A DNA stretch of 56,986 bases, filler included, from Catajapyx aquilonaris (lineage: Eukaryota): assembly GCA_000934665.2 (NCBI GenBank). It is 3 parts of 3 records of this genome, joined end to end, with 100 filler letters (N's around TTAATTAATTAA, not from the genome) between each part and the next. Parts side by side here need not be neighbours in the genome. Positions count along the whole stretch, not along the records: positions 19,021 to 37,942 come from JYFJ02006575.1; 2 more parts are not named here. One strand, written 5' to 3'. The notes beneath the pieces are model-generated. The model was not told where the DNA came from. It did not search any database and saw only the letters and a program-made list of their open reading frames with translations. Position numbers and translations under genes: made by a program. Below, piece by piece: positions 4,485 through 53,273 of the stretch; position 1 is the stretch's first letter; the number at the start of each line of letters is the position of its first letter.

Positions 4485-5764
4485 AGAGGTGATGAGGCCA
4501 CGATTGACGGTGAAGTAACTGGCAGCAGTTATTTCCATGGGAGGACCTATCATCATCTCCACTAATGATTTGATCTGAAGTCAAATACCTTGTAGTTATT
4601 TGTAATTAGTTTGGTGTTGTAATGAATCCAATTCACTTACGTCTGCTTTGCGTTGATCAGGTCATGCAAGGACACTGTGCTCTGAAAATGTAATAACACG
4701 TACTCTTACAGGTTTGTGTAATAAATAACATTTCAGGCAGAGTCAGTCAATTGAGATAATTTTCAGGGGTGCAGCCGCTGTATATACCTGTCGTGGAATG
4801 GATCCTAACACAATGGCAACGGCGGCCGCTGGGGACGTCATGGTGCAGATTCCAATAACCCAAAACACTGTCATAAGAGGGGGATAGCTTGAAGGCAAAA
4901 AGAAATAGAACAAGGTACTCGTCATCCATACAACAAATATCAACAAAATACTCATTAAAGGAAGTCCATAAATGCTGTCCATGAGGTTCACCAAGGATAC
5001 CAGTTCGTGGAAATGGTCGGCGAGACACCTTGTGCCCCGAATCACTCTCTCACTGTTGCCATCATCCAGTGTGTGAATAAAGAGTGTGTGATTACAAATT
5101 CTGGTTATTTCGCTGTTAAAATATTACCAACGAGACTGGTGGACGAGCACCAAAAATATCAACTGAACAGGAACCACGAACAACAAGAAATAAGAGTGAA
5201 CAAATAACAATATCTCAAATAAGTCATAAGGCTTATACAGAGTTACAGACCTTCAATCAAGAGATTAACGATCCATTTTGACTCTATCACAAAAGGGAGG
5301 GAAAAACCAGCGATAACCAGTAGCATCGAAAAAATTCGCAAAGTTTTCTTGTGAATTGTCACGTCCTGATTTGAGAATCGGTGAATCAGTCTCCACATTT
5401 GGGTGACTTTAGTTTGAACCAGGATGTAGTTGAGCCAAGGTGCACCAAGTGTCACTGCATCGCTGATCAGGCCACATATGTGTCGAGTCATACTCTTCGA
5501 TTTATTTGTGCTGATCCAGCGCTTCGGTGGATAACAGCTGAGTATGGCGATGTAAGTGACAAGCAATGAAAAATGCACCATTGTTAGCCACCGTCCGAAC
5601 CACTAAATTATGTCCCGCTTTTTTCTTGGCCACGGAAAAGGAGCGATTCCTCCAACCACTGACAGGATGGCCACTGGTCGGAACACTTCCCAAAACGAAC
5701 TTTGACCTTCCTGCTGTAGCTTTTTCTCCACCGAAATCACTCTATTCGCCATCCTCACGAACAT
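4485..5764 (-). pseudogene. Gustatory receptor pseudogene, inverted duplicate of the 6775 gene
   Basis: Same ATG context (MFVRMANRVIS) as 6775. In-frame TAG near 5603, small insertion giving TAA and a frameshift at 5243, and no final TYLIVLAQF exon after the donor at 4484. Confidence 0.88.
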
Positions 5765-6774
5765 GGTGATTCGAACTCAATGCACAACTCACGTAACACT
5801 GTCCCCGTTTTTTTTTGTATTTTTCGCAATGTCTGCGAGGCATATCGATCGAATATTCAGCTATGGCGTGTCAGACCTCTGAACACCTGCGAGGTGACAT
5901 ATCTTTCACAATTCACAAGACTTGGTGAATATTAATTATTATAGAGACACATTTACGTGCATGAGAGTTTGTGAAGACACTTTCATGCGACTCTTTCCCA
6001 ACAGACAGTTAAATTAATGATCGGTCTCTGGACCATGATTCAACAAATTAAAATTTTCAACTTAAAAATCTTGAAGTAACGGGCAACAGTTATCTTCATG
6101 GAAAGCCCTGATGTCCTCCTGATTAAAATGACTGCACTTGAGCGAATTGACCCGGGAGACACGTCTGGGAAAATTAATATCTTTATATCTAATATTCTCG
6201 ATGCGAGTCATATAACACAAGTTGCAATGTATTTTGGAAGTTGCCCACTGGATTTGTTGGATTGTTATTTCATGTTGACTGTGTTCCTCACACAATTAAT
6301 GTCATTAATACTTCTTGTCCACCAGTCACGTCTGTAATTTTCAAACGATCAAATGAGGTAAATGCGCAATTTCCTTCCGACAAATGCAATAGATGACCAA
6401 CCTGATGACAGAATAAGAGAAATGCAGTCAACACTTTTAGGCGAAAGGTTTAATTTATAGACTATACAATATCAGTGCAGAAAAGTTTATTTAACCACCT
6501 GTTGGGAGAGAATAGGCATTAAAGTACCTTCGCGAACAGAAATATTTCTGTTATTTTCCATGGTGTGCATGAATATGATGGGCGTGACTGTCTCTCGGAG
6601 GTGATAGATCGTCCTCAACTCTAATGGACTGCGCAAGGCGTCATTTTGCAGGTGTATATTATAGTGGTCTGACATCCCATAGCTGCAAACATTCGGTCAA
6701 AATACTAAAAACATGCCTCGCAGACATGGAATAAAGACAGTGTTGCGGAAGTTGTGCATTGAGTTCGAGTCACC

Positions 6775-8224
6775 ATGTTCGTGAGGATGGCTAATCGAGT
6801 AATTTCGTTGAAGGAAAAGGGACAGCAGGAAGGTCAAAGTGCGTTTTGGGAAGTATTCCGACCAGTGGCCATCCTGTCAGTGGTTGGAAAAATCGCTCCT
6901 TTTCCGTGGCCAAAGAACAAGCGGGACTTAAAGCGGTTCGGAAGGTGGCCAACAAGGGTGCATTTTGCATTACTTGTCACTTACATCGCCATACTCAGCT
7001 GTTATCCACCGAAGCGCTGGATCAGCACAAAGAAATCGAAGAGTATGACGCGACACATATGTGGCTTGATCAGCGATGCAGTGACACTTGGTGCACCTTG
7101 GCTCAACTACATCCTGGTTCAAACTAAAGTCACCCAAATGTGGAGACTGATTCACCGATTCTCAAATCAGGACGTGACAATTCACAAGAAAACTTTGCGA
7201 ATTTTTTCGATGCTACTGGTTATCGCTGGTTTTTCCCTCCCTTTTGTGATAGAGTCAAAATGGATTGTTAATCTATTCATTGAAGGTCTGTATAAGCCTT
7301 ATGATTTGTTTGAGATATTGTTATATGTTCACTCTTATTTCTTGCTGTTCGTGGTTCCTCTCCAGTTGATATTCCTGGTTCTCGTCCACAAGTCTCGTCT
7401 GCAATATTTTAACCGAGAAATAACTAGAATTTGCAATCACACGCTGTTTATTGACGCACTGCAAGATGGCAACAGTGAGAGAGTGATTAGGACCACAAGG
7501 TGTCTCGCCGACCTTTTTCACGAGCTGGGCTCATTGTCGAATCTCATGGACAGCATTTATGGACTTCCTTTAATGAGTATTTTCTTGATATTTGTTGTAT
7601 GGATCACGAGCACCCTCTTCTATTTCATTTTGCCTTCAATCCATCCTCCTATTATGACAGTGTTTTGGTTTATTGGTATATGCACCATGACGTTCTCAGC
7701 TGCCGTCTTTGCCATTGTGTTGGGATCCATTCCACGACAGGTGTGATATAGAGCTGCACGCCTGAAAATTACGTAAATTAGCAGACCTTGCGTGAAATAT
7801 TAATTACCTAATAATATTCCATGCTGTTAATAATATATTTACAGAGCACAGTGTCCTTGCGTGACCTCATCAACGCAAAGCGCCATGTATTCAATCCACA
7901 CATCAAAGCAAAAGTAAGTGCATTATTGCCTTCATTGAAACATCAAATTAACTGAATAATTACTGTGAAGTATTTTACTTCAGATCAAATCATTGGTCGA
8001 GATGATGACAGGTCCTCCCATGGAGATAACTGCTGCCAATTACTTCACTGTCAATCGCGGCCTCGTGACCTCTGTAAGTTGTTGTGTAATATTTTCTAAG
8101 CCCATTAAGCTCTGACATTTGATTCACCCTGTAGATTGTTGGAGCTGTGACGACTTACCTCATAGTTTTGGCTCAGTTCAACGTAGCTGAAGGACCCCAT
8201 GCATCGGCTAACAAAACGATATAA
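6775..8224 (+). CDS. Gustatory receptor (7TM chemoreceptor), intact, 404 aa; exons 6775-7740, 7845-7913, 7984-8073, 8135-8224
   Basis: Long first exon with multiple hydrophobic helices, then three phase-0 GT-AG introns. C-terminal motifs ITAANYFTVNRGLVTS and TTYLIVLAQF match the GR TYhhhhhQF signature. Confidence 0.92.
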
Positions 8225-9290: not shown

Positions 9291-10366
9291 TTAGTCATCA
9301 CCTAGCGCACTAAATAGCTGTAAGGCAACCGATAAGTATTTGACCTTTAATTTCACCATTAGTGGAAGGATAGCATTAGTTGCCACCATGCCTCTAGCAA
9401 CAAAATAGCTAGCCGTGTTATTAAATTTTGTTGAGGTATAAAAAGGTACACCAAGATACTTGTAATTGATTGTTATTTGTAACGGTTTGTCTACCCAATG
9501 GAATTTATCTGCAGTAGCTGGTCTCCCTCCTTTCTTAAATATCATCACATGTGTCTTGTCAGCATTAACGTGCAGGCCATTATTACCTAAATTGTGCGTC
9601 TATCTGTCGTTGTAAGTAGGCTACAGACGATTCTGCGCAAGTAGCACGACGTCATCAGCATACTGAAGAAAGTGAATTTCCTAGGTATTTGGTCCAAAGT
9701 TAACTCCCGGTATACTTTGTTGCTCAAAAATATCTTTCATATCCGCCATAAAGAGATTAAATAGGACTGGACTCAGTGATTATCCTTGCAAGACTCCAGT
9801 TTTTATAGCGATCGGCTCTTCACTGCTACTCATTGAAATCGATGCTTGGTCATATAACGATCTGAGTATTTTCGAAAAATTATTATTCCCAATACAGTAT
9901 TTATTTAGTTTACAAAACAACAATGAGTCAACCGAGTCAAAAGCTTTTGAAAGGTCCAGAAATAAAGTGTAAAGTTTACCAGATCTCTTGACCGTATATT
10001 TTTGTGCCAATACCGATAAGGTGAAAGTCAAATCACTGCAGCTTTTGCCAGGTCTAAAATCATATATTCCAGTAACGAAGGTAATGTAAATTTTAAGGCA
10101 GCTATTTCTGAACATATGACCGCCATTTTGTTTTGGGGATAGGTGTCAGGTGGCTCCCCTTCCTAAAGGTTGACAATATAGGTGTGGGCATGATGTATGC
10201 CAAGTTTTGGTGTTCTCCTCATAAAGTGCAGTTTTCTTATGAAAAATGTTGCTTGCCTAGGCGACCATATTGGAACCATGTCTTCAAGTTGAGTTTTGCA
10301 AGTCTCGTCATATCGCCGTCTTGTCGTTACAAATAAGTAATGGAATGGATATGATCTTTCTCGCAT
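9291..10366 (-). mobile_element. Degenerate non-LTR retrotransposon reverse transcriptase fragment (RTEX/L2-like)
   Basis: RT motifs appear in order across stops and frameshifts: FRPGKSCSD, LFLDLSKAFDSVD, GVLQG.LSPVLFNLFM, FLQYADDVVLL, KTHVMIFKKGGR, YKYLGVPF. The clade call is tentative. Confidence 0.88.
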
Positions 10367-11295: not shown

Positions 11296-12767
11296 TTATG
11301 GTTCTTCTGACCCCTTGAATTGAGCCAGGACAATGAGGCACGTAGTCGCAAATCCGGCCATCTTTGGAGAAAAAAAGAGAGAAAAGTGTTAAAGGAAAAT
11401 TGGCATGTCACTGAATGTATTCATTGATTTGTAATTCATTGATTCAGGCGGTAACTTTTATCCCCTCGGGTAAAAGGGTACATTATACTATAATATTGAA
11501 GACATATTGACAACTTACCGAAGTCAAGAGGCCGCGGTTGATGGAAAAGTATCCACCGGCAGTAATCACAATGGAAGGCCCTGTCATCTTCTGGACGAGT
11601 GCTTCAATCTGATACAAATGGTGAAATTTTTTGTTATTGATACTATAAGAAGTAATAAGCAGGAACACTTACGTGAGCCTTGATGTTTGGATTGGTAACC
11701 AGAGGGCTTGCACTTAACAAATGAGTCAGAGACCGTGTGCTCTGAAAATATGAATTATTAATAACTGCACGATGACCCCTGCAAAAATGATGACATACTT
11801 GCGATGGTATGGATCCCAGGATCAAAGTAAATGCAATTATTGATATCAGTGTGGCTCCGGTGAAGGTAATTAATGCCGCTGTGTCCAACACACTAACAAA
11901 TGGCACCAAGAGCAACTCAGAAATCGAGCATATTACCCGCACTGCATTCATAAAGTAAGCAGCCAGAATGCACATTCCATAAACGCTGTCCATGTTTTCC
12001 ACTACGAAGCACAGTTCGTAATATTTACGAAAAAGCAACTCTATATTTTCGCCAAAAATCTCATTCGCTTTCTGCCTATGTCCCGATGAGGACAAAAATA
12101 ATGAATCGCACGTATTAATAATTTTCTCACTTAATTCGTTCAGCAATTCCCAGACAACAATCGCCAGAAATGCCACCTGAGTGGGGATCAAATGAGACAA
12201 AAAGTAGCAGTGCCACATGAAGAATAAATTCAATGTGTTCCTAAGCTCGAATGGGCTGGAAAACGCAAAACTTTTGATAATTAAGTTAATTACTTCCAAT
12301 AAAGGCAGAAGGACGCTGACAGTCACCAATATCAGTGAACGCTTGTGAAGGGGTTTCTTATGCCTGCTGAGATCAAGCTGAGAGAAGCGATGAAGCAGCT
12401 TCCACACTCTCCTCACTCTTCCTTGGATCCAAATGTAACTCATCCATGGAGTAGCACAGACTACGATCAGAAGAATCATCACTTTTGACCGTCGTGTAGC
12501 ATTGAATTTGGCGATTTGTTCCCACGTCGACGGTGGGAAGTAGATGTATGTAGTGACAGACAGGATCAGAATAATGAAGTGCACCATTGCAGGCCACCGT
12601 TGGTACCACTTCCAACTCTGCTTTTCCCTGGGCCAATAAGGGCAAGGAGCGATTCCTCCAAAGGTGGCCAAGATTCCCAATGGTCTGAACGCGGTCCAAA
12701 AGGCGTCATATTGGCCATTATTGTCTCCAGACTTAACACAAACAACGGTAGATCTTCTGCCAAACAT
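11296..12767 (-). CDS. Gustatory receptor, intact, 397 aa; exons 12767-11799, 11741-11673, 11608-11519, 11361-11296
   Basis: First in-frame ATG at 12767 aligns with the 6775 paralogue. The same three phase-0 introns are present, with motifs ITAGGYFSINRGLLTS and TTCLIVLAQF. Confidence 0.88.
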
Positions 12768-13390
12768 TGTTGCTTCACTCACTTTTGAAGCACAACTGCC
12801 AACATTTGTCCCCAACAGAATAAGTACTCATTGATTATTGCTTCCACAAGAACCGCACCCTGTCACACGGACAAGGTTCATTGGATAGTTTATAGCTTAT
12901 GAGTGTGGCTATTAACCCATAGCAATCTGTTGCATTATTACCATTATAACGGAAAACGATAATAATGCTTCTCGTAGCTTGTCAGTCTTAATACATTGTT
13001 TCGTGGTCGTGTTATAAATAAATGGTAGAATCTGTCACGGATGAAACTTCGATACGAAGATAATATTACTTACTCTCATGCTTGCAGAAGAACAAGATCC
13101 CATGATGCAAATGGCAATGAAGCGGATCACTGTCACAATGGCTGGTTGACCGCTTGACGCGAAAAATTCTCATTACAATCTCATTACAATTTATTCAGTT
13201 CATCAGTTTGGAATTAATTCAACTGTGGGGGCAGGGGACAAGAAACGTTTCCCTCCCGAATCCCCTTACTATTCCATTTTATTTCATCATCAACAACTTC
13301 CACTGATGGAGCACAGAAGAAATCAAACGATGCTGGAAGATATCCTTTGTCGATGACATACAGTATGTGTGAAAAATAGTAATCTCAGTA

Positions 13391-17804: not shown

Positions 17805-18823
17805 TTATTCAGAGGCCTTGAATTGAGCCAGGAAAATGAGGCACGTAGTCCCAAATCCCGCCATCTATGGAGAAAAATAGAGAAAAAAGTGTTAAAGGAA
17901 AAATAATTGGCATGCCACTGAATGTATGCATTGATTTGTGAATCATTGATTCAAGCAGTAATTGTTCTCTTCTCATGTATAATTATACAAGGGTACATTA
18001 TACTATAATATTGAAGACATATTGACAACTTACTGAGGTCAAGAGGCCCCGGTTGATGGAAAAGTATCCACCGGCAGTAATCACTATGGGAGGACCTGTC
18101 ATCTTCTGGACCAGGGCTTCAATCTGATACAAACGGTGAAAGTTTTTGTTATTGATACTATACGATATAAGTAATACAGCAAGAACACTTACGTGAGCCT
18201 TGATGTTTGGATTGGCAACGAGAGGGCTTGCACTTAACAAATGAGTCAGAGACCGTGTGCTCTGAAAATATGAATTATTAATAACTGCACGATGACCCGC
18301 GCAAAAATGATGACATACTTGCGATGGTATGGATCCCAGGATCAAAGTAAATGCAATTATTGATATCAGTGTGGCTCCGGTGATGGTAATTAATGCCGCT
18401 GTGTCCAACACACTAACAAATGGCACCAACAGCAACTCAGAAATCGAGCATATTACCCGCACTGCATTCATAAAGTAATGAGCCAAAATGCACATTCCAT
18501 AAACGCTGTCCATGTTTTCCACTACGAAGCATAGTTCGTAATATTTACGAAAAAGCAACTCTATATTTTGGCCAAAAATTTCATTCGCTTTCTGCCTCTC
18601 TCCTGATGAGGACAAAAATAATGAATCGCACGTATTAATTATTTTCTCACTTAACTCGTGCAACAATTCCCAGACAACGATCGCCAGAAATGCCACCTGA
18701 GTGGGGATCAAATGAGACAAAAAAATAGCAGTGCCATATGAAGAATAAATTCAAAATGTTCCTAATCTCGAATGGGCAGGAAAACGCAAAACGTCTGATA
18801 ATTAAGTTAATTACTTCCAATAA
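17805..18823 (-). pseudogene. Gustatory receptor, recent duplicate of the 12767 gene, frameshifted and 5'-truncated
   Basis: Nearly identical to 11300-12303 including introns. One extra A in the run at 18719-18725, and homology stops at about 18823, before the gap. The last exon reads TTCLIFLAQF. Confidence 0.8.
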
Positions 18824-24331: not shown

Positions 24332-26078
24332 TTACCCTGGTATCCCTAAGTCCCTGCAGGCAGGGTACTCATGTCCCCTCATATGGCACCAATGGCAAGT
24401 GCCAATGGCAAATGGGGACTTCCCAGGAATTATGTGCCCTTCTTGAATCCCCGCTTCAGGGAACAGGCCATTCAGAAGTGTCCTAAGGAACCGGCACCAC
24501 TTGCTGAGACCCTTCATGGAAAAATGTAGGCCATCCCTGGCCAGCAAGTCTCGCCGGCCACAGAAACGAGCCTGTGGAATGATGTGTGAAAATGAATTAT
24601 TAAAACAACTTCATTACAGCCTACTGTTATTACTCACTAATGGAGTGTCATATAATATAATAATCTCTCATAATAATAATCCATCATAATTAAAGTGATT
24701 CTTTTAAAACTGCCCATTCATTTTGCCCTAACCTTGTTGCAAAAAATTAGTGAACTCTAAAAAATTATTCATAAGTCGCGCTGAACTTTGGAGCAATGGT
24801 GTCGGTGGTGCCGAAGGTAATCCAAACAATTAGTATCGCGTGGTAGCATTTTTAATTCAGAGATGCGCAAATCCGGTTTTCAGGTGAGATTTTGATGCTG
24901 GCGGAAGGGATGGAGTGCCCTCACCTGACTGCCAAGTCTGGTGAAAATCACAGCAGACCCGGAGATTGTTATGATGCACTTGTGAACGGAGGAAAATCAG
25001 TTTGACCTGAACCTTCCATGTCACAAGTCTTGTTGGAAGTGCCCAGTACAGTCATTCTTGTTCGTGCCCTTATGAAGTTTACATATCCTCCTCTGAGACC
25101 TGATGTCCAATATATTGGGCATCCGGATTTAATTATTATTTACCGCCTTGCTATGGATCAGATCGGAATAGCACTATAAGCTCGAGTGGTATGCTCAAGA
25201 TTTGGTGCTATAGCGAAAAAATACTCCAGGCAAGCAAACTTAGCAGCTTTCCATGACAAAATGGCAGTTCAATTACACTTAAACTACAAAAATTTAGTGT
25301 AAAAATGTGGTATTTATCTTTGTCTTAATGCACCACGTGACACAAATTGCTTGGATTACCTTCGGCACCACCCATATATATATACGGTTGCTGTAAATAT
25401 CAGCGCAACTTTTTAATTTATTTTTTAGAGTGCGCTAATTTTTGCAACAAAGTTAGAGCGAGGCAACTAGTTGGTGTTTAAACTGGGCATGAATTTTCTG
25501 TGAATCTTTGAAACCCAAGCAGATTCAGATCACTTCAGCATGTGACGACATCTTGGCAGTAGAGATAGAGGATTATCTATGTGAGCTAGATGACATGACA
25601 TATATTTTATGGATTGTACACGTGTATAGGCCTACTGTACCTCAACTTTGTATAGATGAGCGTCAGGAATCCGCTGCACCATCTTCTTCAGCTTCCGATT
25701 CCACCACATCCTATGTGTGTTGAGACCAGGTTGGTCCACTCGTGGCGCGACTTCTGCCACGATTATGAGGCAATTGGGCAGGTCTCCTCTCAATTGCCTC
25801 AGAATCCCCTCCAATTCATCCTGGCGTTTGGCCAGTTCAGCCCCAACCTGGGTTGGGTCATTTGCCTGGGCGTGGGCGATGTCGTTGGTGCCCACGGCTA
25901 CCACCACGAAGTCCAGTTCCTTCATATTCATCCTGACCACCTCCAGGGTAGGCTGCAGGTCAGCTACACGCCCCCCTGGCAGGCTGAAGGTTATGATATG
26001 ATGCTGGGGGGGCAGCACGCAGTTCCCCGGTCTGTATTTAATCATAGAGTCTCCTAGCAAAATTCCCTTCAGGATCAT
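24332..26078 (-). CDS. Spliced SGNH/GDSL-type hydrolase with C-terminal CCHC zinc knuckle; exons 26078-25641 and 24571-24332 (225 aa), possible further exons 23036-22965 and 22886-22679
   Basis: Block I LLGDSM, block II SLPGG and block III VAVGTND lie in exon 1. A phase-0 splice GAG|gtacag...attccacag|GCT brings in block V RDGLHF and C-HW-C-HMRG-H-EYPA-C (CX2CX4HX4C). Confidence 0.75.
24725..25460. mobile_element. Old MITE with about 125-bp degenerate TIRs inside the SGNH gene intron
   Basis: ctaaccttgttgcaaaaaattag...ggtggtgccgaaggtaatccaa (24728-24850) is inverted at 25327-25460. Confidence 0.65.
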
Positions 26079-26672
26079 CTGCAAAAACAAGAACTTATAT
26101 AATTAAAGTGCGAATTTTTAGGCACGAAAACACCCTGAAATAGGCACATAAATTTTAAACGATTTTACCTTTGCGGGTGTATGGATGGAGGATAACGTTA
26201 CAGAAAAAGGTAGACACAATTTACAGGCCTTAAGTATATTATAAGGCAACAAACCAGAGCAAAAGACAGGATGCTGGACACAGGACATCACTCCCTAACC
26301 CTCAGTTGGTAGTGTGAGTCTATCGGGACATCAGAACACACTCTTTAGCGATTGATTGTAACTGTAACTACTATCATGTTTGTTGATTAATAATTGGGAT
26401 TTTTAAACCGTTTCCGAGCTAAGCCTCATTTCAAATACTCCTGCATACACACGACAACTTTCAGGTTCTTTTCAGCTTGATGAGGCCTGACACGGAGCTA
26501 TAGGTATACTGACGGGGAGCGCTGCGCTAGTGGCCACGCACGCAGGTCCGTCTGCATGTCTCAGGTAGTGTATGCTTGTCCTTTGTGTTTAATTCACTTA
26601 TTAATATAGTTAATATAGCTATAGTTTTAGTATATCTAGAAATATAGTTCCAAATAAATTTGGTCCACTACT

Positions 26673-33022: not shown

Positions 33023-33218
33023 CAGATTCGCAAATAAAAATGGTGCGATTTGGCCGCAGCGATCGGTATATGGTCGCAATCGGTTATGGATCGGTTATAC
33101 TGATCATAGTCGGTCGGTTATTGATCGGTTATTGGTTATTGATCGGTTATGGTCGCAATCGGATCTGCTGAATAACGGTCGCTGCGACCAAATCGCACAA
33201 ATTTTATTTGTGAACCTG
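33023..33218. mobile_element. Small MITE with about 43-bp TIRs and internal (atcggtt)-type repeats
   Basis: cagattcgcaaataaaaatggtgcgatttggccgcagcgatcg pairs with cggtcgctgcgaccaaatcgcacaaattttatttgtgaacctg. Confidence 0.7.
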
Positions 33219-33567
33219 AGTTATGACTGGCTATCACATATTTTCCATCTTTAATAATCCATACCTTGCAACAAAAAAAAAATCAAAGTCATTAGAACCT
33301 GNCCCCCCCCCCCGAGTGGTACAGATATTTTGGTCGCCTCGTGGCCTAGGTCAACCTTCTGGAATTTACAGGATACGCGCTAATTGATTGCCAGACGTAT
33401 GTCTGGTGGAGGTCCGGCGTCCGGGCCCAACTCTGCTGGAGATCCACTTCCTTATCTGTGCGATTTTTGACACATTTGCTTGGGCTCTGAGTTTCGACAC
33501 CAAGATGTAGGCGTGCCTCTCTGCTAGAGCATTCCCTTCAGATCATTCTGACAGTGAAGACGGGTAG

Positions 33568-33863
33568 TTTGTGAGTTTGTAGTGATTAGCTTTAGTGACA
33601 GTTTTATTCCTTTTTTGCACGGGTAGTTTGTTATATTATAACCTCTCTTTTGTGAGTTTGTAGTGATTAGCTTTAGTGACGGTTTTATTCCTTTTTTGCA
33701 CGGGTAGTTTGTTGTATTATAACCTCTCTTTTGTGAGTTTGTAGTGATTAGCTTTAGTGACAGTTTTATTCCTTTTTTGCACGGGTAGTTTGTTGTATTA
33801 TAACCTCTCTTTTGTGAGTTTGTAGTGATTAGCTTTAGTGACAGTTTTATTCCTTTTTTGCAC
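33568..33863 (+). repeat. 81-bp tandem repeat, about 3.6 near-identical copies
   Basis: gtgagtttgtagtgattagc recurs at 33571, 33652, 33733 and 33814. Confidence 0.95.
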
Positions 33864-34130
33864 TTGCAGTAATTTTATAGCCTTTATTTTAAGAGTTTTT
33901 AGTGTTTTGCTTAAGTAGACTATTCCATTTCATTAATTGTATTGTCTATTTTGTGAGTTGTAGTGTGCCATTTAAGCAAGATATTAGGTTTCATATCCAT
34001 TTTTTCAAAGCGAGTCTATAGATTATTGTTTCGACTTTGGAAAGTGACTCATTGTTGGTAGCTGGTGGTAGTGTAAAGGCGGATTCTGACGTTATTTTCA
34101 TACGAGTGTGTAGATTATTAGCAGTGCAAT

Positions 34131-37100
34131 ATGATTGATATTGGAACGTGGAGAGCCAGGCTGGAAAGAGGGCCACATTTGCGGAGGAGGATGAAGGATG
34201 ATGATGACCACCAAGACCAGCAGCGTGCTTGCACAGTGGCAGCATTTGCCCGGTGTGCAAAGAAGTCACTGCTTCTTTGGGTGTTAACTCTGGGGATCAT
34301 TAGTGTTCTTTTGATTCGTGGGGGAGTCGAGCAGAACCCAGGTCCTGGTCCTTCAGCCGCACCTGACTCACCTACTGTGGAAAGGGACTCCCAAACAGAA
34401 GGTGCTATGCCAAAAAAGCAGGTAGGCTTGTGGCTCTGTAAGTGTGGAAAGGGATTTGGGAAAAAATATAACCAGCAGAGACATATGAAGCAGTGTGCGG
34501 CAGTAGCCAGTAGCGGCAAGAGTATTTCACCCAGTGATCAATCATTAACATGTAGTACATGTGGGGTTATCCTTGCACAAAAATGGAACTTGGACCGGCA
34601 CCAAAATACTTCTTGTCAATCTAGGAAGCCAACAGGATTGGCGAAGAAAAGTTGCTTGGATCCTGCTTGTTCCCTGACATTTTTTCATAGAACTCGAATG
34701 TTTGCTCATTACTGCTCTGATCATCTGAAAACTGATCCAAAGACCAGCCACAGAGTGTTTAAAACCATGCAGGAATTTAATGAGTGGAAATTAGATCTGG
34801 AAAAGAAAACATATGCGTATTACGCCAAAATTTGTGGCACGAAAGATAACCAAACTCTTGTTAGATTTGCATACTATGCCTGCCAAAGGGATGGATCATC
34901 AAAATTCCATTCCGTCCGAAAAACGCTGCGCAAGCGCCATGATGGTCGCGTAAAAACAGACATGAATTGCCCTGCACGATTACTCGTCAAGTATGACCAT
35001 GATGGTGTAGACGTACAGTTCTTAGACTTCCACACACATCCCCTCGATTTTGCAGAAACGAAGTTTCAAAAGTTGCCTGTTGATGTCAGGGATCACATAA
35101 AAACCAGGTTAGCAGATAACGTTGAAGTACGTTCGTAGATGCACTGAAAGATGAGTTGAGAGCAGGGGTTGGAAATTTGGCGAGCTGGGATCCAAACCAT
35201 CACTTTCTACCGCAGCACTTTGTTTCAAAAAGGCGACTAAATCAAATTAAAAGCAAGATTGAATGGAACACTAAGCATAGTCATAAAGAAGACAGCATTT
35301 CCCTTGCAAATTTGGTGACAAGCTTATGCCAGGATCCAAGCACTTCTCCTATTTTGGTGTTCAAACTGCAGCAGGAAACAGTGCGTGTAGGGCCTCCTTA
35401 AATTGATACATTACCTGACGCAGAAAATTTGTTCCTTTTAGCATTTCAGTCTCAGCCACAGCTAGAAAACTTAAAAAAACATGCAGGTGTAATACTGTGC
35501 ATAGATGCCACACATGGTACTACATGCTATGATTTTTATCTAGTCAATATGTTAGTCCGAGACGAGTTTGGTCATGGTTATCCGGTGGGACATGTAATAA
35601 CGAACCACCAGGATTCCAATACATTGCATTGGGTCTTCTACGCAATCAGGCTCAAATGTCCTGATTTAAAAATTGGTGCTGTGATGACAGATGACGATTG
35701 CAGTGCGTACAATGCACTTAAATCTGTCTTTGGGGAGACTGACTGCGGTGTACACTTAATATGCAAGTGGCATCTTCATAGATCGTGGCATCGAAATCTC
35801 CGTCGCCTCATAAAAGGAGATGTGGTGGACCTTCGAGCATTAATCTACCAAGAGCTGATTGTAATATTAGAGGAACGTTCGGAACCTAAATTTCATCAGC
35901 TCTGCATGGGCTTCTGCAACAAATATGAATTAGACCAGCTACAGTTTGTTCAGTACTTTCGAAAGTATTACCTAGACAGGCCAGAAGTGTGGGCTATGTG
36001 TTTCAAAAATTTTGAGCATGGTCGTACAGACACCAACATGTACTGCGAGTCCTTCCACAACAAAATTAAGACATTTTATTTGAAGAGAAAACCAAACAGA
36101 CGGTTGGACGATTTAGTAAAATTGTTGCTGAAAATAGAGGAGGACATAAGAATGGCGCATACCAAGAATACTTTGGAAAGAAAGCCCCATGTAATGAATG
36201 TTTCAAAGAGTAAAAGCATTAAAAGCCGGCATGAAAGGGGGATGAGCATTTCCACATCTGATGTAGTTTGCATGGACAATAAAGCTGGGGTTTTCAAAAT
36301 CAGATCACAGTCCAACCCAGATACTGAGTACAAGGTAACAATTAAAAAGTCCTTTTGCAATGAAGCGCATTGTTATGAATTTTGCTATGAAGCAGGATGC
36401 TTGAATTTGTGCAGTCATTTGTACCGTTGTAACTGCCTTGATGGCAGCCGCCTTTGCAAGCACATACATAAACTTCACTCTCTTCGACAAACTGGTTGCA
36501 AGATTGAAAGTAGTAGACCGACAAATACTGAACAAAATGTGCCCATATCTGTTCCAGAGTCCTTTAGTAATTCTCCAGCAGTGCCTTCAAATGTAGAGTC
36601 TAGACTATCCTCAGTCGATTCAGCACTTGCGAAGATTTCAGACCTTCTTAGAAAGCCCCACATTCAAAAGTGGTATTTAGCAAATGCAGAGAGCAAAATT
36701 AATGAACTACTTTTGGGCCTTCAGGCTGTTGACAAACAATGCGAACAAGGATTGCTCTCCTCGGCGCCTCACTTGGAGCCAAAAGTCAAGTTTCATGGAA
36801 GGGAAAAGCTGAAACGGCAATCTTCCACTGCTGGAATTTACCGGACCTCTAAAAAGTACACTGCAATTAGTCCTTTCACCAAGCCGACAGAGAAAGAGAC
36901 TGTAGAAATTACACAAATGTTACTGGAAAGTGCAAATGATACAGGTAGCATTCCTGAAGTAAGCGATTTTACTCCAAAACTGTGTGGTGCTGCTTCCGTT
37001 GAACAGAAAGCAATTACTGTCCGTGGCATACATACACATATGAAGCAGTTGAAGAGCCTTGAGCCCTGCTTAGATAAAAAGGAACTTGCTCTTATCAAAT

Positions 37101-37819
37101 CCATACAAGCTGATTTTAGAGTAGGATGGTTCTATGACTGCATATTAGAAGCCTTTTTGAAACGACTGGAATCCACTTACACAAATACTCTAGTGGGAGA
37201 TGCCAACACATTAGATTTTCTTAAAAATCCAATCAGTCAGGCCTTAACAAGATTATTAGATGGCAGGAAACCAGAAAACATTGAACTCGTGTTGTTGCCT
37301 AGGTGTGTTAATAATAACCATTGGGTGTTGCTAGCAGCTCATGTGAAGGGAGATAGGAACATTTATTACATAGATCCTATGACGAATAACTCAAGGCCCG
37401 ATGATAAAGATATTAATACTTTCTCTAACTCCCTAAGTAAGTTTTTTGGCTTGGTTAACCCACTGAAGGTAGTTCAACCCATTCATGTATTACAAAATGA
37501 CGGCAAAAATTGTGGAGTGTTTGTTTGTTACTTTGCTGAGCAGCTCTGTAAAAAGTTAAGTCTAACAACCCCTATCACTCCCTCGCTTGATCATTACAGA
37601 AAACACATATATGACACAATACGTGCCAATTGCTTGCAAAGGAAAACAACAAAGGAATATGACAAATGCCTTGTATGCAAATCAAACCAGACGGTTCTAA
37701 ATGATTCGGATTGGGTTCAATGTGATGATTGCGATCAATGGTTTCACATTAAATGTGTTAAACTAGGTGCCACACAGGCTAGGAGGAATTCATTTACATG
37801 TCCAGGAGCTACAGTGTAA
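34131..37819 (+). mobile_element. Mutator-like (MULE) transposase, disrupted: 2A-like leader, C2H2 fingers, DDE core, SWIM, Ulp1-like peptidase, PHD finger
   Basis: Three C2H2-type fingers; YACQRDG..CPARL..HTH domain; core CIDATHGT, VMTDDD, CKWH, TNMYCESFHNKIK; SWIM CNC..LCKHIH; peptidase C48 motifs NNHWVL, YIDPM, QNDGKNCGVFVC; PHD CLVC..WVQCDDCDQWFHIKCV..FTCP. One frameshift near 35130 and one in-frame TAA at 35399. Confidence 0.9.
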
Positions 37820-37942
37820 TTTCAGGAATCTTAATGCAATTCAAGGGCCCAAGCATCTGAAGCTCATGACAATACAAGTACCTGTGATTATATATAAATA
37901 TAAAAATTTATCTGAACTTCATCATTGTGCTGCTGCAGAACT

Positions 37943-38042
37943 NNNNNNNNNNNNNNNNNNNNNNNNNNNNNNNNNNNNNNNNNNNNTTAATTAATTAANN
38001 NNNNNNNNNNNNNNNNNNNNNNNNNNNNNNNNNNNNNNNNNN
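37943..38042. other. Assembly gap with artificial linker
   Basis: N run, TTAATTAATTAA, N run. Confidence 0.97.
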
Positions 38043-49100: not shown

Positions 49101-50315
49101 ACAATTCGATTTGCTTGCACTTCATATTCACAACAAGAGACTGCCAAATGTAATAACCTTGCTGCAGGGAAGGTTCCTCTTCGAGCAAATATCTGGTAAT
49201 GCAATTGACCTGATTTTAGAGTCCGTTTGGTTTTGGCATCGAATCACATCCCTGTCAAAATTGGAAGGAAAATCATAACAAAACAGTTTCTTTTGTTGTG
49301 TCATTAACGTGAGTCACCTTCATCGCTACTGTCATTTTCATTGAGAAATTTACCGCTTTTTTAAAGTACTGTTGCAGTGTAATTACTAATTGCGTCCAGA
49401 TATGTTTTCATTGACTTGAAAGAGATTGATCTGAATCCATAGTGAGGTAGCCACTCAGCAAATGAGTGCTGGAAAGGTATGTGCCTTCAGTAAAAATGTC
49501 AATTGCCTAAAAGCATTGCATCTGAAAAATTCAGGATGTGACTCAGGCCCGATATCATCAGCGGCAGAAAGAATCGTTTTTCTTTTTTGCATTAATATAT
49601 TGGACATTTCTTGATTTTAGACATCACTAAACCGCAGTAAGTGTTTTTTTTTTTCTTTCGTGTATCTCAAGTGAAAATACAAAGTTTCAGTTTAAAATTG
49701 GAGGAGGAAATGTTTTCCCTGGAAGTGGTTTATGATTTTATGCTGTTAGCCAGATCTATATTTTTCTCGCTGATCCGCAAGCACTTTTGACCCGTTTCAA
49801 CTGTAAATGGCGCAGACATTTTTGTGACGGCGCTCACTGCCTCGTGCTTTATTAATGATATGCAATCTGCAGTTATATGGTGTTTTTTTTTTTGGTCAGT
49901 TTGTAAAGCCATTCTTTCGAGCCAGCTTGAAAAGGTCAAATCTGATCAATACCAAAGGCTAATGGATTTCTAGTCAAATGTTTGCAATATCGTAAAAAAT
50001 GGAAGTCCTGGTTACCAATATTTGTTCCGCCAGTAATGCAACTCAATAACAAAGCCTACCAAGTGTTAGTTCCAAAAATGGTAACGAATCACTGGACATT
50101 TTATGTGGAACATCTTATATCGACGGGTTAATACTTTTGAAGTCCTTCATACAACGAGACTGAAGTCCGACTGATGACCAGGTGAAGTCCGAGTTAAATC
50201 TGGTCGGAGTCCGTTGAGTACTATATAGTATCAAGCGACTAACCCCTCGCATGACATGCAACTTTGCGTATGTAATTACAGTGGATATTATTGCTATTTT
50301 TATTTCCAATGCAGG

Positions 50316-53273
50316 ATGGTGTTGGATCCCAAAATTGGTGGCAACCATGGGGACTACGGGAGCTTCCAGTCGACCCAGACTCTGCCCACAGTGGGCTACC
50401 CTTCCCAGGACCACGAGGAGGTAGAGGACCATCGCCGCCGCCTGATTCCCCTGCAGCCACCAAAGGACATTGAAGGTGGCAGCAACGCCACCTCATCCTC
50501 TGCAGATCTGGGCGAAGTCACCACCTCAAACACCGTGGCGGTCGGAAGCACCACCGCCAATGGGGTCGCGCCGGGGTCCATGGCCCAGGACGTGTACCAG
50601 CGCCAGCCTCTGCTTCCTCCAAAAGGCGACGAAGATACGTGGGACCTCACCGGAGGCCTGACTGCCAGCGACTTTAGGCCCAGGAACGGGATAGTGAGGA
50701 TAGATGTCCCTCCCCCAACACGCAACCCGGTCCCATTCCCCAAGGAGAAGGGAAAGACTCTCGTAGCATTTCTGTTTTTGTTTGTGAATTGGGTGCTGAC
50801 CACGTTTTCGCTCTCGATGGTGCATGAGCGTGTGCCAGACCGACGGACTTATGCTCCCTTGCCAGACACCATTTTGGATGCCGTTGGGGAAGGGAAGGAC
50901 TGGGCGCTTGATGTGTCCGAAGCGTTGATTATTGTCGCTGGGAACGCCAGCATGTTAGTTATATTGCTTCATCGCCACCGGTTCATAGTGCTGCGGAGGT
51001 TGTGCCTGTTGCTTGGACTCCTGTACATGATGCGGTCGGTGACTATGTATGTCACAGTGCTGCCTGTGGCCAGTCGGACTTACTATTGCTCGCCGAAGGC
51101 AAATGGGACTGATGCGTTGGTGATGGCCAAGCGGGTGGTGAAGCTGCTGTCCGGCCTGGGGCTGAGCATCAATGGACAGCACACGTACTGTGGAGATTAC
51201 ATCTACAGCGGTCACACCGTTATTCTCACCACAGCTTACCTCGTCATCCAAGAGTGTGAGTCGAATTTATTTGCGGCTTAAGCTGTGAAGATCACTTGTC
51301 TGTTATGCTGCAAATGTCACATGTCTAAATGGGGAGTTTGTTTTCTATTTGCTTTTGGAGGAAAGCCAGGTGAAAAGCTAAATTTTGCTTATAACTGCCA
51401 AGTATATTTCTGCAAAATTTTCACGCTCTCAAGGTTGCTGCTCTGGCATTACGGAAGTGATATTCGTATCCTGAAAATTAATACTGTTGTCGCATGAAGA
51501 CCTAATTTTATGGGGTAAAAATGTGTTCATACGAATCAGCAAGTGAACTGATGAACTTGCAATTGGTTTGAAACGAAATGAATATTTGCGCTGTGAATCT
51601 GCGTGAAGTTTCCAATCATGACTGACTGCTTCAACTCTTTTAATCTCCGAATTTATCAGCCATGTTTTCTAGAGCCGTTGTCAAAACAGTGGTCAGTTTC
51701 CATTGGTGAATGTCACACAGATATATCACTTAGATACAGCATGTTTGTAGCAGTAATTTGTCCTACGCCACGAGCACCCTTCATCACATGACTTGTTTTG
51801 CGAACTATTCTTTCAAGAGCCGCTCGGAATAATCAGGAAGTGGATCTTTCAGTAATGCGTTCATAAGTATTGAGCATGCTACAATTGATCCAGACCCTGC
51901 CTTCATTGTGTGTTGAATTGACTTTTGCCACGGCTTCTGCAGTCGTATTGATTGGCACTAATGATGGCACGCAGCATTGACACCACATATTATGGCCTCA
52001 TTCATATCGGATTTCATAAATGATAGATATATACATGGGAAATGTTGACATCAGAGTGACTCATTCGTTACTGGGCCAAAAAATTCACACAATTTTTCCA
52101 TTATGGAATTACGGCCAGCAGTAAGATACTGCTGGCGAGACTTGCCAAAGTTGCGAATAAGCCAGCGTAGTTGAAGAAGTATCAGGGAAAGAATTTAATG
52201 CTTGCAGTGTAAATTACAGCGTATGACTTTTAATCTGTGAATTTACTGCAGCCCTTTACCTTTTTTTTATTGCCTCTGATTCTAGCGATACTTTTTTAAC
52301 TTCCACGACTTGCAGCAATAAGTGACGAAATGGCCTACATTGCCCAAAAACCTTGAGATATTGTTGTGAATGAAACATGTGGCGCAGTATTTTGCAGCGG
52401 CTGATAAAACTAGCATAGAAGTAATCTAGAATAGGAATGTGACCTTGGTCCTTATCCACTCCTGCGTAGTAGTACATTGACGTTGCTTCTCCTAGCCGCT
52501 TCGCAGTGAATATGGAAATTTCAACAACCCCCCACCACATAAAGGTCATGGAGATAGAACCGTGTAGAAAGTTGAGGGTGTGTCTGCATGGGTTAATGTG
52601 CTGATAAGGCAGGCTAATTAGTGAAGGTGCCCTTTACCAATGCCTCTGGTGGACAGGCCGTGATAACACCAGAGGCATGTGATGTGATATGATATTAAAC
52701 TTAGGTTTTTAATGCGATACATGGCGTCTACAGGAATTTATTTAGCTGATGAACCATTTGAATGTAATGACTCGTCAATTCACTAGGTCTTCCTGCCGAG
52801 CTTTTGTTGACTGATGTTTTCCTTTACAGACTCGCCTCGTCGACTGTTTATCCTCCACTGGTTGGCATGGCTAATTGCAGTGACTGGTGTGGTGATGGTG
52901 CTGCTGGCCAGGGGTCACTACACAGTGGATGTCCTCATTGCTTACTGGGTCACCACCCGACTCTTCTGGATCTACCACACCATGGCCAATAATCCTCAAC
53001 TAAAGGTACAATTCCGTTATCAGCAAGTTAGCGTCGACCTCAGCATACATTTGCACCGACTACCTACGTAATAATTTCTTGTCAATTGAAATTTTCTTCT
53101 CCGATTTCCAGGAGAGGTGTCCGAGCAACTTCTTGGCCCGCGTATGGTGGTGGCCCATCTTCAGGTACTTTGAGAAGAACGTGACTGGAGTGGTGCCGAG
53201 GCAGTACGAGTGCCCGTTGCCCCCTTGCTGGGCCAGGAGGATATTCGCCAAGCCCACAAACAGGGACAGTTAG
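50316..53273 (+). CDS. SGMS: Sphingomyelin synthase (phosphatidylcholine:ceramide cholinephosphotransferase), SMS1/2-like, 425 aa; exons 50316-51255, 52830-53005, 53112-53273
   Basis: PLPD, HRFIVLRR, CSPK, CGDYIYSGHT and HYTVDVLIAY motifs, plus the SMS1-like tail LARVWWWPIFRYFEKNV. Splices GAGT|gtgagt..tacag|AC (phase 1) and AAG|gtacaa..ccag|GAG keep the frame. An acceptor at 50314 implies an upstream exon. Confidence 0.93.

Follow-up and report, generated by a model that had tools for sequence, protein, structure and literature searches.

Background

2A (StopGo) leaders are known from RNA viruses, from retrotransposons without long terminal repeats (non-LTR retrotransposons) and from a few host gene families. 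Here we describe such a leader at the head of a Mutator-like element (MULE) transposase gene, at positions 34131-34346 of a 56,986-base stretch of DNA from Catajapyx aquilonaris (assembly GCA_000934665.2; this whole stretch is called the window). Among the closest described systems, N-terminal 2A-like sequences have been reported in APE-type non-LTR retrotransposons (Rex1, L2, CR1, Crack, Ingi/L1Tc; Odon et al. 2013, PMC3708506). In sea urchins, 2A-like signal sequences of NLR proteins are 26 residues long, occupy the extreme N-terminus and are predicted to be signal peptides (Roulston et al. 2016, PMC4981915).

Two recent surveys describe the motif itself. Among viral octapeptides, Gly is found at p12 in 1,207 cases, against 908 exact D(V/I)ExNPGP matches, and the 2A core was widened to (D/G/C/N)(V/I)ExNPGP (Li et al. 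2026, PMC12846837). The same source names six classes of upstream sequence, one of which ('motif 5') is Leu-rich and ends with (A/G/S)G at p12. A 2026 preprint (PMC13405545) names GxExNPGP as a 'non-canonical' core and reports that active eukaryotic 2A-like peptides are enriched in Leu and hydrophobic residues at -19 to -10.

The leader and its StopGo motif

The frame of the leader opens with ATG 34131, three codons after an in-frame TAG (34119-34121) and with A at -3, and remains open up to 35138, spanning three zinc fingers and a WRKY/FAR1-like region. Translation of its first 72 codons, from this ATG to the Pro of NPG/P (P72, 34344-34346), gives MIDIGTWRARLERGPHLRRRMKDDDDHQDQQRACTVAAFARCAKKSLLLWVLTLGIISVLLIRGGVEQNPGP. 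The leader starts with MIDIGTWRARLERG and ends with RGGVEQNPGP, which lies within the 13-mer LLIRGGVEQNPGP and has its last base at 34346. In-frame Met codons are found at M1, M21 and M93. A first-pass annotation had already read the start, the hydrophobic stretch, the RGGVEQNPGP motif and the frame shared with the zinc fingers from this DNA, and the sequence agrees with that reading.

Chance does not account for the motif. A single G.E.NPGP is found when the window is translated in all six frames, and 200 block shuffles produced none; for E.NPGP the expectation is 0.02 per window. Over 34131-34442 the leader frame contains no stop in 104 codons, and the other two plus-strand frames contain 5 and 7.

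Together with the preceding TLGIISVLLIRG, GVEQNPGP displays both the core and the upstream context described in the surveys, that is, a Leu-rich helix and (A/G/S)G at p11-p12. Coding sequence continues in frame past the Pro into the zinc fingers, and LIRGGVEQNPGPGPS is conserved in all four homologues of the leader (see below); this conservation concerns the leader and not the transposase. Judged by class membership, the motif is of genuine StopGo/2A type, with a predicted skip point between G71 and P72. Its earlier designation as 2A-like is borne out, both by the fit to the widened consensus and by viral sites with an identical 13-mer. That designation had come with the caveat that Gly in place of Asp may reduce or abolish skipping. 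The caveat falls away, because G(V/I)ExNPGP is itself an established core and is as frequent among viral cores as the Asp form.

The leader is preceded by 623 nucleotides (nt) in which the plus strand has no ATG. This is the longest of 1147 ATG-free gaps in the window, with 12.5 ATGs expected by composition. None of 5000 shuffles of the stretch was free of ATG, a test that overstates significance because tandem repeats make the bases non-independent. These repeats form an array of 81-nt units directly 5' of the leader (about 33568-33960; repeat families D1 and D3), with three near-identical and two degenerate units. They could be monomers of a promoter or of a 5' untranslated region, or a subterminal transposon repeat. 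An inverted repeat at 33023-33218, with 47-nt arms (85% complementary), a 102-nt loop and short direct TCGGTTAT repeats at its flanks, looks like a small foldback element.

Homologues of the leader

Homologues of the leader were searched for among proteins of 57-182 residues. This identified P0189 (89 residues, ENA, from contigs of up to 673 nt), whose 90% cluster adds P0190, P0191 and P0192. All four are unnamed open reading frames (ORFs) of 76-94 residues and follow the pattern MITLDQWRARIGGYRCRGVK(D/E)EEEPSD...VIK(V/T)ELIRGGVEQNPGPGPS(P/S)KLVS. The Met start (MI..WRAR), the acidic run and LIRGGVEQNPGPGPS are common to them and to the leader. BLASTP aligns the leader with its homologue at 36% identity over 80 residues (E 4e-11). 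When residues 1-29 are used alone, so that the 2A is excluded, the match from Met1 to Met1 persists (E 4e-4). Start codon, WRAR, acidic run, 2A and GPGPS must thus have been inherited together. Since the homologues span the whole leader, it represents a pre-existing N-terminal module.

Past K-L-V-S, which lies seven or eight residues behind NPGP, all four homologues diverge, and they end within a further 6-11 residues. As GTAAGT encodes Val-Ser, this divergence probably marks an intron that was read through by the gene caller. Beyond this family, a comparison of the leader (90 residues) with proteins of 159-2000 residues yielded 215 word candidates and no match at E<=10, and the ESM Atlas, queried with the leader and with P0191, returned no usable match. 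The proposed retrotransposon-type origin of the leader is therefore not supported: its sole whole-leader homologues are unnamed ORFs that seemingly end at an intron. Derivation from a neighbouring long interspersed element (LINE) was considered as well and dropped, for no NPGP is found near the reverse transcriptase fragment or the esterase ORF of the window (Table 1). Residues 4-7 (IGTW) may resemble the first strand of APE endonucleases, in an order that is wrong relative to the 2A.

Identical motifs in viral and retroelement-like contigs

Contig scans by alignment of the leader required the words IRGGVEQN or GGVEQNP, so that independent evidence is confined to residues outside them. LLIRGGVEQNPGP is present, identical to the letter, in L001, L002/L005, L003 and L006. 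L002 and L005 are one virus in two contigs; the second ORF of L002 matches RdRP_4, and the LLIRGGVEQNPGP site of this virus lies 90 residues past a canonical GDVEENPGP. In L001 the 13-mer occurs in the first 150 residues of an ORF1 with three CCHC knuckles. Two picorna-like helicase-3C-RdRp polyproteins (L007 and L011) carry LLIIGGVEQNPGP. In total, xLLxxGGVEQNPGP was found in 11 of 11 confirmed viral-contig loci, in ORFs ranging from 224 to 1,834 residues.

In L008, L009 and L010 GGVEQNPGP is present twice in a single ORF, as LLQIGGVEQNPGP and as QLMIGGVEQNPGP, at a distance of 134 residues; the 973-residue frame of L009 gave no Pfam match. L004 was rejected as a chance match of the acidic run. 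Its long, very GC-rich frame is devoid of NPGP and resembles, by eye, a bacterial membrane protein.

Relationship of the leader to the transposase family

The 335-residue first frame was compared by HMMER with 1.84 billion representatives. There were 479 matches at E<=1e-3 (best 2.4e-41), and among the 150 matches listed no best stretch begins before query residue 78. NPGP is absent from all 188 MULE relatives inspected, namely these 150 and 38 further relatives of the C-terminal part. Likewise, tblastn homology to MULE relatives begins at 34443, with the first zinc finger. Full-length relatives carry a short acidic or Ser-rich head instead, 18-60 residues ahead of the first finger. The GC content is 0.52 in the leader and 0.53 in the linker that follows it, compared with 0.40-0.42 in the remainder of the gene and 0.365 immediately upstream. 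By the measure of these relatives the leader is foreign to the transposase, and because it is foreign, capture or fusion of some kind has occurred. To this extent the capture suggested in the first-pass annotation holds.

Other copies were looked for in read contigs from three DNA runs, probably of the source sample, aligned at a likeness of at least 80%. Positions 33900-35027 are covered by one contig only, which is identical to the window over 33900-35373 and confirms its sequence; no second copy of 33900-35027 was found at this likeness. Sister copies that have diverged (80-91% alike; 84-91% in the pieces listed) begin at 35028 and extend through the end of the gene, with coverage of 35028-37940. 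One of them, 1,014 bases long, is 85% alike over 35028-35373 and has 672 unrelated AT-rich bases upstream. Because it is unrelated upstream of 35028, the sister copies break inside the WRKY-like region.

The contigs provided several further observations. In the sole sister contig over 35379-35415, which is diverged, G replaces T at position 35399, so that a sense codon stands where the window has TAA. Summed contig depth is five- to eight-fold higher over 36465-37274 (linker and Ulp1 part), a segment apparently common to a larger number of repeat copies than other parts of the gene. Contigs of run X5 are diverged and cover only 36872-37481.

The transposase gene

Seven relatives identified by tblastn are colinear with the window from the first finger (34443) to the gene end. 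They follow one frame to 35111-35132 and another from 35135-35144. Given these colinear relatives, the single frame change and the TAA, the gene is a full-length MULE-SWIM-Ulp1-PHD gene with two disabling lesions, its frame amounting to 1,229 codons over about 3.7 kb. The downstream disruption that had been noted for this copy is thus confirmed as one frameshift and one stop codon (Table 1). Relatives are numerous (44 at E<=1e-10, about 26-54% identity) and come from thrips, spiders, shrimp, hemipterans and amphioxus. The DDE transposase domain and a SWIM-type region place the gene among MULEs; an intact autonomous frame is lacking. An endonuclease or reverse transcriptase, as expected behind the 2A of an APE-type non-LTR element, is absent, the domains found there being zinc fingers, MULE, C48 and PHD. 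This copy yields nothing useful now, because the frameshift and the stop break the frame 330 and 420 codons downstream.

We found no convincing terminal inverted repeats or target-site duplication around the gene. The strongest inverted pair is 17 nt long (32727/38256; E 0.055) and has unmatched flanks. On the 3' side of the gene the sequence is interrupted by N runs, and the terminus of the element on that side is probably concealed by them. They are two runs of 44 bases with TTAATTAATTAA between them, apparently an assembly or linker artefact rather than genomic sequence.

P0151 (1268 residues, ENA) is the best relative of the C-terminal part. Its residues 1-20, directly before the first finger, open with MTVILFFPNQ. 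This could be the pyrimidine tract of an intron followed by CAG in translation, hinting at an upstream exon in the MULE of P0151.

Interpretation

A genuine StopGo/2A leader module is fused in frame, immediately ahead of the first zinc finger, to a complete MULE-SWIM-Ulp1-PHD transposase gene. We consider it somewhat probable that this is a chimera of a single locus and not a regular trait of a transposon lineage. The module comprises Met1, the basic WRAR, the acidic run, the Leu-rich helix, GGVEQNPG/P and a short Ser/Pro-rich linker, together with its own ATG-free 5' region. It is a separate, pre-existing unit, found with an identical start codon and 2A in unnamed sequences of different origin as well. 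Most likely a leader exon of another gene or element was joined, in a single event, to a transposase deprived of the short head it once had. As long as the frame remained unbroken, ribosomes that initiated at 34131 would have stalled at GVEQNPG/P. Part of them would have released the 71-residue leader and resumed at Pro72, giving free transposase; the remainder would have read through or dropped off, and the likely net result is that less transposase was made. The sequence, the motif class, the homology of the leader and its foreignness to the MULE are shown by the data; from these we infer skipping, attenuation and an origin in one event.

Activities of similar peptides are given in a sort-seq table from HEK293T cells (PMC13405545, supplement file 3), with 54 GG(V/I)E occurrences. 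The closest measured peptide, ILQIITILLVRGGVEQNPGP, shares 15 of 20 residues with the leader and is classified as 'fall-off only, reduced protein', in line with attenuation, and AVLFIGLLLLRGGIEPNPGP is scored as 'skipping'.

Several observations weigh against a skipping leader of one-off origin. Three peptides of the same table with (G/A)GVE(Q/K)NPGP tails are 'nonskipping'. Among 30 of the 54 GG(V/I)E rows, skipping is recorded for 14, fall-off for 4, reduced protein alone for 2 and no effect for 10, four of these ten being without NPGP; sequence alone does not predict 2A activity. With respect to origin, only two lesions are found in about 3.7 kb and the frame joining leader and transposase is clean, which fits a recently active, leader-carrying element. 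The leader homologues, four variants of about 90% identity that are seemingly followed by an intron, look as a first exon would in a DNA transposon with many copies. No element ends were found around the joined gene. Finally, the comparison of sister copies is a weak test, as contigs drop variants and copies less than 80% alike are missed, and it says little on the leader because the sisters are without the whole zinc-finger third too.

Alternatively, a Mutator lineage regularly carries the 2A leader, partial skipping sets the transposase dose and the window holds a decayed member, which is how the first-pass annotation had seen it. This is possible, yet in our opinion doubtful. Besides the nearly intact frame of 1,229 codons with its two lesions and the multi-copy, apparently intron-followed homologues, as a first exon of a DNA transposon might be, it would explain why the join coincides with the domain boundary ahead of the first finger, why the start codon is conserved and why the 5' region is free of ATG. 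It is contradicted by the lack of NPGP in 188 relatives and by the single copy of 33900-35027 among read contigs in which sisters of 35028-37940 exist, and no terminal repeats enclose the leader. Absence of the leader from sister copies was the outcome named beforehand as speaking against a lineage trait, and it is the one that we obtained, with the weakness, just described, that the sisters lack the 5' third. An explanation that partly overlaps with the favoured fusion is that a separate host gene or element has the leader as its first exon, normally spliced from CAG/GTAGGC (34421/34422) to exons elsewhere, and that the transposase landed or was truncated in the first intron of that gene or element, so that the open junction is accidental. 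The linker does contain donor-like sites, CAG/GTAGGC with 7 of 9 consensus positions and TCT/GTAAGT (34438) with 6 of 9; P0189-P0192 diverge and stop after K-L-V-S as if they ran into an intron, and the GC content steps at 34443. On the other hand, scanned ORFs of at least 90 residues between 38.7 and 49.2 kb show no Pfam match and offer no candidate downstream exons, the next gene, with the PAP2_C exon, shows no need of a leader, and a stop-free in-frame join over the seven junction codons has a chance of about one in three. We regard such a first exon as rather improbable.

The hydrophobic stretch had been proposed to act as a signal or anchor, by which unskipped protein would be tethered to the endoplasmic reticulum and skipped protein would be free, as in the sea-urchin NLR leaders that provide the precedent (PMC4981915). 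Its most hydrophobic 17 residues, SLLLWVLTLGIISVLLI, have a mean Kyte-Doolittle value of 2.64, which is enough for a membrane helix, and are preceded by Lys-Lys. However, 46 residues stand ahead of the hydrophobic core (26 if translation starts at M21), as opposed to the 26-residue, extreme N-terminal leaders of sea urchins. P0189-P0192 have a hydrophilic segment at the same place, so the property is not conserved, and a Leu-rich helix at -19 to -10 is intrinsic to active 2A-like peptides (PMC13405545). Because it starts at residue 47, is missing from the homologues and overlaps the 2A helix, we read the stretch as part of the stalling peptide and not as a conserved targeting signal; tethering is not supported and appears very unlikely. 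Hardly any weight is left for chance, that is, a fortuitous open stretch with NPGP ahead of a true transposase start at M93. Such a start would be compatible with relatives that begin 18-60 residues before the first finger. Absence of G.E.NPGP from the 200 shuffles, 104 open codons next to frames with 5 and 7 stops, the 13-mer identical to viral sites and the existence of full-length leader homologues bring this explanation close to refutation.

In a wider and tentative reading, which we hold possible but would not expect, a portable StopGo first exon (Met-Ile..WRAR, acidic run, LIRGGVEQNPG/PGPS, splice donor) moves among genes and mobile elements and, in this case, stands at the front of a Mutator-like transposase of class II. 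Skipping leaders would then extend beyond RNA viruses and retrotransposons and would also serve DNA transposons as a brake on transposase output, and skipping would possibly also expose an N-terminal Pro. If a Mutator lineage used the leader, a recoding module would have crossed element classes and would represent a natural translational self-limitation of transposase. If it is no more than a single chimera, the locus still demonstrates that an arthropod genome holds a Leu-rich GGVEQNPGP module identical to the letter with sites of RNA viruses, and through it a small family of homologous leaders with conserved start came to light.

Features of the window

Positions of the leader, the transposase gene and other features are listed in Table 1. 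Chemoreceptor frames occur at 2-1741, 4746-5123, 6763-7743, 11646-12827 and 18001-18750, one with a Lig_chan domain (ionotropic receptor) and several resembling gustatory receptors (7tm_7); the 7tm_7 frames 11646-12827 and 18001-18750 are near-duplicates. GDSL/SGNH esterase frames, of which the window has one, occur in some LINE ORF1 proteins.

Table 1. Coordinates of the leader, the transposase gene and neighbouring features in the window
Feature	Position	Strand	Remarks
RVT_1 fragment	9783-10145	-	retrotransposon debris
GDSL/SGNH esterase frame	25635-26102	-	retrotransposon debris
T-rich 5' region	33508-34130	+	ATG-free on plus strand; holds 81-nt tandem repeat array
Leader, 72 codons, first ATG to Pro of NPG/P	34131-34346	+	homologous from Met1 to ENA proteins P0189-P0192
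Leu-rich hydrophobic stretch LLLWVLTLGIISVLLI (L47-I62)	34269-34316	+	-25 to -10 before skip site
StopGo core octapeptide GVEQNPGP (G65-P72)	34323-34346	+	preceded by LLIRG; fits (D/G/C/N)(V/I)ExNPGP and GxExNPGP
Ser/Pro/Asp/Glu-rich linker GPSAAPDSPTVERDSQTEGAMPKKQVGLWLCK	34347-34442	+	part of leader module; includes junction with transposase
Transposase N-terminal DNA-binding part	34443-35135	+	three C2HC/C2H2-type fingers and WRKY/FAR1-like domain; weak Pfam zf-C2H2, FAR1
Frameshift breaking the gene	~35112-35144	+	relatives switch frame without residue loss
In-frame TAA stop	35399-35401	+	
Transposase body	35402-37819	+	ends in stop codon
ZSWIM-type RNaseH-like/MULE DDE core	~35492-35779	+	PF21056 3.5e-12; PF10551 1.2e-10
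SWIM finger		+	between DDE core and Ulp1 protease
Ulp1 C48 protease	~37277-37567	+	PF02902 3.6e-7
PHD finger	~37667-37804	+	PF00628 3.1e-8
Two N runs (assembly gaps)	37943-38042		124 nt past stop codon
PAP2_C exon	50229-51278		

Comparison with known systems

We could not find a previous description of a 2A leader on a DNA transposase. No report of one was found by full-text searches or by term searches of the main texts of 2A surveys. In the survey supplements, the largest files of PMC13405545 being outside the search, 'transposase' appears as a label only ('Transposase, L1' in one and, for 2 of 4 occurrences in the other, 'LINE-1 type transposase domain'). On this thin evidence the arrangement is apparently undescribed.

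The layout of the locus resembles that of APE-type non-LTR elements, in which a 2A motif and a Leu-rich helix are located in the first 50-150 residues of the ORF, before the enzymatic domains; the retroelement-like metagenome locus L001, with the same 13-mer ahead of an ORF1 with CCHC knuckles, is similar in this respect. In contrast to these elements, what follows the leader here is a Mutator-like transposase of class II, which has Ulp1 and PHD domains, and not an endonuclease or reverse transcriptase. The leader has Gly in place of Asp at p12 and was seen in one dead copy only. Moreover, its homologues appear to be followed by an intron, whereas non-LTR elements are without introns.

Leu-rich viral StopGo sites with Gly at p12 (PMC12846837, PMC13405545) match the leader in the core and in the six preceding residues. 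Viral sites separate functional proteins in polyproteins, whereas the site in the window ends a 71-residue leader without recognisable domain. With the sea-urchin NLR leaders it shares an N-terminal, hydrophobic, 2A-like character and a position before a cytoplasmic or nuclear protein whose fate, in sea urchins, has been attributed to partial skipping. It differs from them in that its hydrophobic core begins at residue 47 of 72 and is missing from relatives of the leader.

As for the transposase, MULEs of arthropods and amphioxus (P0153, P0156, P0158 and P0163; thrips, spider, shrimp) have fingers, WRKY-like domain, DDE core, SWIM and Ulp1 in colinear order with the gene in the window, at 29-54% identity. 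The latter differs by an added PHD finger and by its head: where the full-length relatives have a short acidic or Ser-rich stretch, and none of the 188 has NPGP, it carries a leader with a StopGo motif.

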